Shown: piece by piece, positions 28,135 through 29,089 of the stretch
How positions within the stretch are numbered: the first letter of the stretch is position 1
Layout of the letters: each line of letters opens with the position of its first letter
Origin: a virus
Taxonomy: Duplodnaviria > Heunggongvirae > Uroviricota > Caudoviricetes
Virus record (IMG/VR): IMGVR_UViG_2529292726_000018
Span: 1-29,089 of that record
Strand: one strand, 5' to 3'
DNA length: 29,089 nt
The notes under the pieces: generated by a model
The model's input: the letters and a program-made list of their open reading frames with translations, nothing else
Told to the model about the DNA's origin: nothing
The model's database searches: none
Made by a program: the position numbers and the translations under genes

Positions 28135-28199
28135 ACCAGCATAAATCCGGTAGCGTCCCCCTCCGGGTTTGTGCTTCACTTTATCCCGTCTCATTTTTT

Positions 28200-28255
28200 T
28201 ATACATAAAATGTACTTAAAGTACTTTACAATGATGAACACAAAGTACATTATAT
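28200..28255. promoter_or_regulatory. Candidate left operator/promoter downstream of the repressor gene
   Basis: ATGTACT at 28210-28216 (reverse complement of AGTACAT), AGTACT at 28220-28225 and AGTACAT at 28244-28250; the same motif family as in the 27636-27714 region. Confidence 0.45.
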
Positions 28256-28421
28256 ACCTACCAACCCACCCCGCCCCACAGAACGCCGGGCAATACTTCG
28301 AGTTACCAGGCAGTGGTCAGGGGTTAAGTAGCCAGCCCGAGGCGTATGAACATGACGGCGGGATTCAAATTTTGCAGTGCAGCAGTTAGTTCCGCCACCC
28401 GGCGTTAAGGGGATAGATAAG

Positions 28422-28556
28422 ATGGTGCATTACGAAGTAGTTCAGTATTTGATGGATTGTTGCGGTATCACTTACAACCAGGCTGTGCAGGCTTTACGCA
28501 GCAACGACTGGGATCTCTGGCAGGCAGAAGTCGCTATACGTAGCAACAAGATGTGA
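28422..28556 (+). CDS. Small early-left protein (44 aa, YdaG-like?)
   Basis: ATG 28422 with a purine-rich SD. MVHYEVVQYLMDCCGITYNQAVQALRSNDWDLWQAEVAIRSNKM. First of a tightly packed run of small ORFs. Below the track cutoff. Confidence 0.45.
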   Translation: MVHYEVVQYLMDCCGITYNQAVQALRSNDWDLWQAEVAIRSNKM

Positions 28557-28566
28557 GATTCGCAAA

Positions 28567-28722
28567 ATGCAAAAAATCGACCTCGGCAACAACGAATCCC
28601 TGGTGTGCGGCGTGTTCCCCAACCAGGATGGAACGTTCACTGCCATGACGTATACCAAAAGCAAAACGTTTAAAACCGAAAATGGTGCCCGTCGCTGGCT
28701 GGAAAGAAACTCAGGGGAGTGA
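28567..28722 (+). CDS. Small early-left protein (51 aa, YdaF-like?)
   Basis: MQKIDLGNNESLVCGVFPNQDGTFTAMTYTKSKTFKTENGARRWLERNSGE. Its stop is 1 nt before the next ATG. Confidence 0.45.
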   Translation: MQKIDLGNNESLVCGVFPNQDGTFTAMTYTKSKTFKTENGARRWLERNSGE

Positions 28723-28723
28723 T

Positions 28724-28852
28724 ATGGATTTCGACACAATCATGGAAAAGGCTTACGAAGAATACTTCGAAGGCCTTGCCAAAGGCGAAGAAGCTCTCAG
28801 CTTCAGTGAGTTTATACAGGCGCTTTCCAGCCCGGCAAAATCTAACGGCTGA
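28724..28852 (+). CDS. Small early-left protein (42 aa)
   Basis: SD GGGGA then ATG 28724. MDFDTIMEKAYEEYFEGLAKGEEALSFSEFIQALSSPAKSNG; acidic. Confidence 0.4.
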   Translation: MDFDTIMEKAYEEYFEGLAKGEEALSFSEFIQALSSPAKSNG

Positions 28853-28881
28853 TAAGCGAAGCAGCACCGCGAGGAATCAGT

Positions 28882-29089
28882 ATGCAGAAACGAGAACCCG
28901 TCATCATCGCGCCAGACTATACCGATGATGAACTTTATGAGTGGATGCACCAGAAAATTAAGGCTGCGCAGGACCTGAAATGGGCCAATGAAGCCAGGGC
29001 TAAGCAGGCTGAAAATCTGTCCGCTCTGGAGCAGGATATCACCAGGCTGGAAAAAGCAGCGGCATTAAGCATTGCCAGAATGATTACAT
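28882..29089 (+). CDS. Early-left hypothetical protein, 5' part (runs off the window end)
   Basis: SD GAGGA then ATG 28882. MQKREPVIIAPDYTDDELYEWMHQKIKAAQDLKWANEARAKQAENLSALEQDITRLEKAAALSIARMIT...; frame still open at 29089. Confidence 0.45.
   Translation, partial: MQKREPVIIAPDYTDDELYEWMHQKIKAAQDLKWANEARAKQAENLSALEQDITRLEKAAALSIARMIT

Follow-up and report, generated by a model that had tools for sequence, protein, structure and literature searches.

The 29,089-nt stretch of the IMG/VR virus record IMGVR_UViG_2529292726_000018 (Caudoviricetes), hereafter the window, ends with a repressor gene followed on the same strand by an intergenic gap and a series of small open reading frames (ORFs). 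This terminal region, at positions 28135–29089, very probably corresponds to the start of the early-left operon, transcribed from the leftward promoter PL, of a mosaic lambdoid Escherichia coli prophage of Rac, Qin, and HK022 type. The locus is a known and ordinary one: it consists of a left operator and promoter (OL/PL), a 5′ untranslated region (5′UTR), and the first four small genes, all of them catalogued, and it is neither a new RNA element nor a toxin cluster. A preliminary description, made by reading the DNA alone, had assigned it to the early-left region of a Rac-like prophage, directly 3′ of the repressor gene, and this assignment holds, the prophage being lambdoid.

Names were assigned to the ORFs from the annotation of their megablast matches in a set of 5,426 complete E. 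coli genomes. As first described, four ORFs of 44, 51, 42, and more than 69 codons follow one another on the plus strand, separated by 10, 1, and 29 nt. The first is ydaG (28422–28556; 44 aa; phrog_14709), whose DNA is 100% identical to b1355 of strain K-12. The second (28567–28722; 51 aa) is a chimera of ydaF and ydfA and encodes a DUF1391 protein, recognized over its full length by Pfam (E = 5.6e-29; 100 bits against a cut-off of 27.3 bits). The third, ydfB (28724–28852; phrog_2061), encodes an acidic protein of 42 aa, and the fourth, ydfC (28882–29089; phrog_1744, E = 2e-39), is represented by the first 69 of its 72 codons, as the window ends within the gene; both carry these names in the annotation of relatives. 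Shine-Dalgarno (SD) sequences, reported earlier in front of each ORF, are found before ydaG (AAGGGGA), ydfB (GGGGAG), and ydfC (GAGGA), but the DUF1391 gene is preceded by a weak one only (GTGAGA).

The mosaic structure of the region is clear from its matches. Positions 28135–28600 are 100% identical by megablast to Rac-like prophages of many E. coli strains. The alignment locates a Rac-to-Qin crossover inside the DUF1391 gene, at 28644–28668: the 5′ side is of the Rac type (ydaF) and the 3′ side of the Qin type (ydfA), and beyond the crossover come the Qin-type 3′ end of ydfA, ydfB, and ydfC of the dicBF operon. Because the junction falls inside the gene, the DUF1391 protein is a natural chimera. 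The association of ydaG with ydfB and ydfC is found in only 4 of the 5,426 complete E. coli genomes. Downstream of ydfC, L001, the closest relative sharing the immunity region, carries in succession DicF (Rfam, 76.7 bits), dicB, ydfD, an exonuclease gene, xis, and int; L104, the closest relative sharing the order of the ORFs, carries kilR, ydaE, and recE. Of the Rac-like gene content that had been proposed, ydaG and the 5′ part of ydaF are thus present, in a sequence 100% identical to Rac-like prophages, but kilR and sieB are not: the ORF listing of the window contains neither, the minus strand harbors no sieB-like ORF, and ydfB and ydfC stand there instead.

The DUF1391 family is narrow: it amounts to 290 clusters in a set of 5.8 billion proteins, and the source names are Escherichia, Shigella, and Salmonella. 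With one genome per species, relatives were recovered only in Escherichia and Shigella, plus mislabelled contigs of metagenome-assembled genomes. These are E. coli-type DUF1391 prophage contigs in assemblies named Collinsella, Nanosynbacter, Veillonella, and Bacillota (L007, L010, L013, L016, and L019), which most likely reflect binning contamination. YdaG matches Pfam UBA_4 marginally (24.1 bits for a cut-off of 21.8 bits). Its AlphaFold2 (AF2) model contains three helices (predicted local distance difference test, pLDDT, 74), for which the top Foldseek matches, HypK-THB and the UBA domain of USP5, are all non-significant (E > 1); a published AF2 view of YdaG agrees with a UBA-like three-helix bundle (PMC13348028). 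The ydaG gene is invariant in close relatives, and the diverged homologue of locus L017 keeps the pattern YLMD.C...A.QALR...WD. Structure prediction and fold search led to no functional assignment for the DUF1391 protein or YdaG, and no function was found in the literature for ydaG, ydaF, ydfA, ydfB, or ydfC.

We compared nucleotide diversity by codon position among 22 distinct sequences extending from the leader to ydfC. At positions 1, 2, and 3, respectively, diversity is 0, 0.008, and 0.038 in ydfA, 0.017, 0.020, and 0.073 in ydfB, and 0.007, 0.016, and 0.048 in ydfC, third-position diversity being three to five times that of positions 1 and 2. This pattern is that of purifying selection on the proteins, and the ORFs are real genes.

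Following the Rac model, the preliminary description had suggested host-toxic or exclusion functions for the four small ORFs; that they serve in toxicity or superinfection exclusion we consider distinctly unlikely. Lambdoid early-left regions often carry exclusion genes, in relatives the division inhibitors DicB, DicF, or KilR and the lysis protein YdfD are products of the same operon, and the selection on the proteins fits a role of this kind. However, Plac induction of ydfA-ydfB-ydfC-ydfD of Qin, with dicF and dicB deleted, caused neither growth inhibition nor filamentation (PMC5069750), which leaves the toxicity of ydfA, ydfB, and ydfC unsupported. What a filamentation screen enriched was the whole Qin region, which holds the inhibitors dicB and dicF, ydfA, ydfB, and ydfC being only listed among its genes (PMC6206680). 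PHROGs assigns all four proteins to families of unknown function, and sieB and kilR are missing from the window. The four proteins are conserved early phage proteins and not demonstrably toxic.

Operators and promoter downstream of the repressor

The repressor gene and ydaG are separated by 287 bp, in keeping with the "leader of about 290 bp" of the preliminary description; however, only about 162 nt of this gap would be transcribed leader, the remaining 125 bp or so being occupied by a hairpin and by OL/PL. The hairpin (28138–28175, plus strand) lies just 3′ of the repressor stop codon and is strong (−19.4 kcal/mol, z = −5.9, none of 200 shuffles being as stable). It has the position of a terminator but a poor U-tract, and the terminator scan did not call it; in the alignment, other immunity types, including L017, have a canonical terminator with a hairpin and a T-run at this place. 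An ops-like core, GGTAGCGT, is present at 28148–28158 within the hairpin, where the Rfam match to JUMPstart (E = 7.1) is far under the gathering score and probably due to chance.

The operator-like motifs noted earlier 3′ of the repressor gene were confirmed and exceed chance expectation. The 13-bp motif G(A/T)AC-N5-GTAC is confined to four sites in the 29 kb, of which one pair lies in the interval from cro to the repressor gene (27652 and 27676) and the other in the gap before ydaG (28212 and 28236), with the same 24-bp spacing in each pair, whereas 0.57 sites are expected by chance and none of 100 shuffles came up to the observed count. OL-1 (28212–28224; GTAC-TTAAA-GTAC) is palindromic and abuts the −35 element of a promoter; OL-2 (28236–28248; GAAC-ACAAA-GTAC) lies in the spacer and overlaps the first base of the −10 element. 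Both align with OL of HK022. The promoter, PL, was identified by the promoter scan at 28225–28253 on the plus strand, with TTTACA (28225–28230) and CATTAT (28248–28253) separated by a 17-nt spacer, and it aligns base for base with PL of HK022 (TTTACA-17-CATCAT). The entire 28205–28259 segment is homologous to the characterized PL/OL of HK022. The locus shows a sigma-70 promoter that is overlapped by operators, lies 3′ of the repressor gene, and points away from that gene, and the sharing of one operator sequence between left and right control regions that is typical of lambdoid OL/PL.

We set the +1 of HK022 PL by fitting the published numbering of putL onto the HK022 sequence, with the pairing of A3–G7 with C15–U19 and a −10-like element at +23 to +28 as anchors (PMC9378689). 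The homologous base, A28260, would be the start of PL in the window, and since the start is placed there, the true 5′UTR of the PL transcript would extend from 28260 to 28421 on the plus strand (162 nt).

In a lysogen, the repressor would bind the OL sites and shut off PL. Upon loss of the repressor, transcription would start near A28260, as judged from the mapped HK022 start, and the transcript would carry the 162-nt leader followed by ydaG, the ydaF/ydfA chimera, ydfB, and ydfC. Beyond these genes, the operon of relatives goes on to division inhibitors (dicF and dicB, or kilR), recombination genes, and xis/int. In the Rac prophage of K-12, where the leader and ydaG are 99–100% identical to those of the window, ydaG and ydaF are upregulated about 40-fold as RacR falls (PMC6765115; PMC11014345), and CRISPR interference against racR derepresses ydaG, kilR, recE, recT, xisR, and intR (bioRxiv 10.64898/2026.09.06.749655). 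Transcription from this side, which the preliminary description had presumed, thus takes place in the homologous K-12 Rac operon on loss of RacR (PMC6765115; bioRxiv 10.64898/2026.09.06.749655).

The leader and its possible roles

To compare leaders, we extracted the regions 5′ of the DUF1391 gene from 100 related loci. Ten unrelated promoter/operator types, each with a −35/−10 pair in one register, converge on a common leader, and in all ten the homology begins 6–7 nt after the −10 element, that is, at +1. The long leader was identified in 3,765 of the 5,426 complete E. coli genomes (~69%). A second class of about 70 nt, present in Qin of K-12 and in others, has only its last ~45 nt in common with the long leader. 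More distant copies are those of L105, a Rac-like phage record with a 75%-identical leader 5′ of kilR, and of L017, whose leader is short and still more divergent. L105 corresponds to positions 1973–3353 of PP818812.1, "Actinobacillus phage vB_Apl-pPE4", and comprises a Rac-like immunity region, the leader copy, kilR, and recE, together with a tandem duplication of about 100 bp (~2790–2975) that carries a terminator-like hairpin 5′ of kilR. As leaders 98.9–99.4% identical to that of L105 occur in E. coli genomes, including O157:H7 strains, the Actinobacillus host label looks doubtful.

Among the same 22 sequences, nucleotide diversity of the leader is 0.041, equal to that of third codon positions in the adjoining genes, and falls to 0.004 in the last 23 nt. 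Because leader diversity matches that of third codon positions, its sharing among immunity types reflects a shared mosaic module and not a strong sequence constraint. The clearly constrained part is limited to the last 25–50 nt, with a small GC hairpin and AAGGGGA. It contains a conserved box at 28389–28413 on the plus strand, GTTCCGCCACCCGGCGTTAAGGGGA, made of a 4-bp hairpin (CGCC/GGCG) and an SD. The box, of the form GTTCCGCYACCC(N)RGCGTTAAGGGGA, is kept in the long leaders, in the short Qin leader, and in the divergent L017; the closing pair of its hairpin is C-G, U.G, or U-A among variants, and its SD (AAGGGGA, 28407–28413) is the ribosome-binding site (RBS) for whichever ORF comes first.

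The leader is not detectably structured, and we do not think that it is a folded riboregulator. Compared with shuffles, the folding z-score is −1.3 for the whole leader, and 0.02 (28260–28345, 86 nt) and +0.7 for its parts; the value of −2.2 obtained for the full 296 nt results from the inclusion of the 28138–28175 hairpin. RNAalifold found no compensatory change in the 34 pairs predicted from 29 leader variants, and in 1 of 35 pairs, with a covariation term of about zero, for ten representatives including the 75%-identical L105, the power of these tests being limited by the narrowness of the DUF1391 family. The long-range GC stem of the preliminary description could not be retained, as 28291–28299 (CAATACTTC) is not complementary to 28334–28344. 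A nearby pairing is possible between 28284–28291 (CGCCGGGC) and 28335–28344 (GCCCGAGGCG), with a 2-nt bulge. This helix lies outside the minimum-free-energy fold and is equal to shuffles. Of the 29 variants, 20 have lost its central pair, and none of them shows a compensatory change; in L105, inspection by eye reveals one double change from G-C to A-U, a single event that is not evidence. A 9-bp long-range repeat (28282–28290 and 28398–28406) was rejected: it also equals shuffles, its central pair is broken in 20–21 of the 29 variants, and L105 shows two uncompensated mismatches by eye. The structure-based search that had been advocated for the leader was run with Rfam at a permissive threshold (E up to 10) over 27300–29089 and returned nothing relevant. 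Matches to SNORD11B and to a JUMPstart fragment (E > 2) were dismissed as chance, the latter lying in the hairpin 5′ of PL. What had been taken as a long structured leader followed by unannotated ORFs is resolved into a hairpin, an HK022-type OL/PL, an ordinary 5′UTR, and catalogued y-genes.

A nut-like site or a small RNA had been envisaged in the leader. More generally, the leader might be a put- or nut-like RNA acting in cis in processive antitermination, which would let transcription from PL pass downstream terminators and reach dicB or kilR as well as the recombination genes and int. In HK022, putL occupies the very position of the leader, at the +1 of the homologous PL (PMC9378689), so that a put-like role was worth testing. 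Retention of the leader behind at least ten immunity types and in 69% of E. coli genomes also fits this possibility, as does the length of the operon, which contains the DicF gene in relatives. The 3′ end of DicF is made by an intrinsic terminator. However, comparison of putL with the window (blastn-short) gave only chance matches of 8–11 nt, none of them within the leader, and the window contains no second, putR-like copy of the leader, although the whole PR operon is present. The two long stem-loops (~70 nt) that characterize put sites at the 5′ end of the transcript are lacking, the first 30–40 nt being C-rich and unpaired. For a nut site, one would expect a boxA resembling CGCTCTTA, a boxB hairpin, and an N-like first gene. 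No boxA (YGCTCTTWA, at most one mismatch) was found in 28135–28421, and the first gene of the operon, ydaG, does not encode an arginine-rich motif. Folding at the level of shuffles, none or one compensatory pair even with a 75%-identical homologue, the lack of an Rfam match, and diversity at the level of third codon positions all argue against an RNA of this kind, and Qin-type prophages have a 70-nt leader without most of the module. We therefore regard antitermination by the leader as very unlikely, and the nut-like site is not supported.

That the leader encodes a free-standing small RNA is extremely unlikely. It is a conserved non-coding stretch beside a promoter, and prophage early regions do encode small RNAs, such as DicF and KilS. 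However, the terminator scan detected no terminator-like site on the plus strand between 28260 and 29089, no Rfam match, stable structure, or covariation was found, and in every variant the leader runs straight into an SD and an ORF.

Reading the sequence, we found a candidate upstream ORF (uORF) of 18 codons at 28352–28408 on the plus strand, preceded by GAGG 9 nt upstream and ended by a TAA just 5′ of the ydaG SD. A longer candidate, a 72-codon ORF with a GTG start across the leader (28171–28389), was discarded: its start lies 5′ of the transcription start, the start codon is not conserved in other immunity types, and most variants carry a TAA.

If the 18-codon uORF were translated as a leader-peptide attenuator, ribosomes might control access to the ydaG SD or the loading of Rho, and in relatives devoid of ydaG the same start would yield a longer, 78-aa YdfA isoform. 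This explanation seems quite unlikely to us, although it accounts for several features. The GAGG and the ATG, at their 9-nt spacing, are invariant in 29 of 29 variants and in L105, the frame is open to the RBS of the next gene in most variants, and the three internal length differences among long-leader variants, in alignments read by eye, are multiples of three. In most relatives without ydaG the uORF ATG is in frame with ydfA, and this fusion explains why DUF1391 genes are commonly called with 77–86 aa (e.g., the 78-aa P0013) instead of 51, many gene callers choosing the extended form. Similarly, the PHROG 751 profile has 70 residues, of which the 51-aa protein covers only positions 20–70. 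On the other hand, both the sequence and the length of the peptide vary (18 codons here, fusion in most relatives, 22 codons in L030 by translation by hand, and 6 in L105). A manual count gave four synonymous and four non-synonymous substitutions, with no clear coding signal, and the short Qin leader has no such uORF.

The 5′ end of the leader (28260–28300, plus strand) is C-rich and G-poor (GC skew −0.4 to −0.9), with CCCC runs that could be rut-like or anti-SD. Divergent leader variants retain this pyrimidine-rich, G-poor composition, and pairing of CCCC with the GGGG of the SD is possible in 29 of 29 variants, without covariation. Our best guess is that, through polarity or attenuation, operon expression would depend on translation and Rho, owing to the first 40 nt, rich in C and poor in G, and to the short uORF with its SD; together these features suggest such a control.

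Several points weigh against the interpretation of the region as the start of a PL operon with such a leader. The −10 element, CATTAT, is weak, the promoter scan called overall no more sites than in shuffles, and for this exact sequence we infer the transcript, the PL start, and the binding of the repressor. The part concerning Rho and the uORF is only an inference, the C-rich stretch of about 40 nt is shorter than classical rut sites, and the length of the uORF changes from 18 codons to 6 in L105 or to an in-frame ydfA fusion in most relatives. Moreover, the Rho terminator that silences kil of Rac was mapped inside racR, where it acts on read-through from the racR promoter, and not in the leader (PMC4150792).

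More ambitiously, the 162-nt PL-proximal leader could be an undescribed cis-regulatory RNA, either a processive antiterminator of a new type or a Rho- or uORF-dependent attenuator. We hold this to be unlikely; it is suggested by the fact that the leader begins at +1 behind at least ten immunity regions, occurs in ~69% of E. coli genomes, and takes the place of putL in HK022. If this were true, the leader would gate the prophage division inhibitors DicF/DicB or KilR together with recombination and excision genes. A single module with a conserved box, an SD, and an SD-preceded uORF is joined at the transcription start to many immunity regions, and in most E. coli genomes it lies 5′ of toxic division inhibitors. 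Were the module to tune their expression, by Rho polarity, by coupling to the uORF, or by antitermination, this would go some way toward explaining how the widespread toxins of cryptic prophages are silent yet inducible.

The repressor gene and the PR side

The repressor gene (27715–28134, plus strand) encodes a 139-aa protein with a helix-turn-helix (HTH) domain (Pfam HTH_3, E = 1.8e-9), related to HK022 cI and to DicA. Its HTH is 45% identical to the N-terminal domain of HK022 cI, and its operators are nearly identical to those of HK022. Against the NCBIfam model of the DicA subfamily it scores 56 bits for a cut-off of 101 bits, and because of this score we consider it as DicA-like and not as a DicA orthologue. 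Pfam detects no S24 peptidase (self-cleavage) domain in the 139 aa, so that induction probably does not proceed via RecA-mediated cleavage. A promoter-like sequence, CTGACA-17-TATCAT, is present at 27679–27715 and ends 7 nt 5′ of the repressor ATG, its −35 element being overlapped by the second OR operator (27676–27688). Because of this short distance, the repressor mRNA would be leaderless or nearly so, like that of lambda cI transcribed from PRM.

On the minus strand, a gene for a Cro-like HTH protein (27381–27635; 62% identical to HK022 Cro) is followed by a gene for a YdaT-type cII analogue (26962–27384; Pfam YdaT_toxin). A perfect inverted repeat, TTGATT-N6-AATCAA, spans the start codon of the ydaT-like gene (27374–27391) and is identical to the "YdaT-box" of the CP-933P type (PMC11879457), the site bound by the cII analogue, which activates a reverse promoter for the repressor (PMC11879457). 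Further along the PR operon, the ydaT-like cII gene and an O-like replication gene are 77 nt apart, and this interval contains two adjacent 9-bp stem-loops (26885–26961, minus strand; −24.9 kcal/mol, z = −4.2) without U-tracts. They show no similarity to HK022 putL.

Relation to known systems

The locus shares features with four characterized systems. In HK022 (cI - OL/PL - putL - nun), the order is the same, with the repressor gene followed by operators and a promoter and by a transcript reading away, and 56 bp of OL/PL align almost base for base. The similarity stops at the transcription start: after +1, HK022 has putL and nun, whereas the window carries an unrelated 162-nt leader and ydaG. 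In addition, the repressor of the window lacks the C-terminal S24 domain of HK022 cI.

With the dicBF operon of K-12 Qin (ydfA-ydfB-ydfC-dicF-dicB-ydfD), the window has in common ydfB, ydfC, and the 3′ part of the DUF1391 gene (93–97% identical and in the same order), a DicA-like repressor gene 5′ of the ydfA-ydfB-ydfC order, and the last ~45 nt of the leader with the box and the SD. Unlike the window, Qin has a leader of about 70 nt, no ydaG, and another immunity region; the window itself ends in ydfC.

In K-12 Rac (racR-ydaG-ydaF-(sieB)-kilR), ydaG and ydaF directly follow the leader as they do here: the leader is 99% and ydaG 100% identical, and the first 80–100 nt of ydaF are Rac sequence, to about 28644. 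The repressor, the operators, and the −10 element of the promoter differ from those of RacR, however, and after 28644–28668 the sequence is of the Qin type, and the window has neither an antisense sieB nor kilR.

Finally, compared with PL - nutL - N of lambda, the locus has no boxA or boxB and no N-like first gene. The logic is nevertheless that of lambda, in which the same operators serve OL and OR, and a leftward promoter under repressor control, 3′ of the repressor gene, leads into small early genes, recombination genes, and int.

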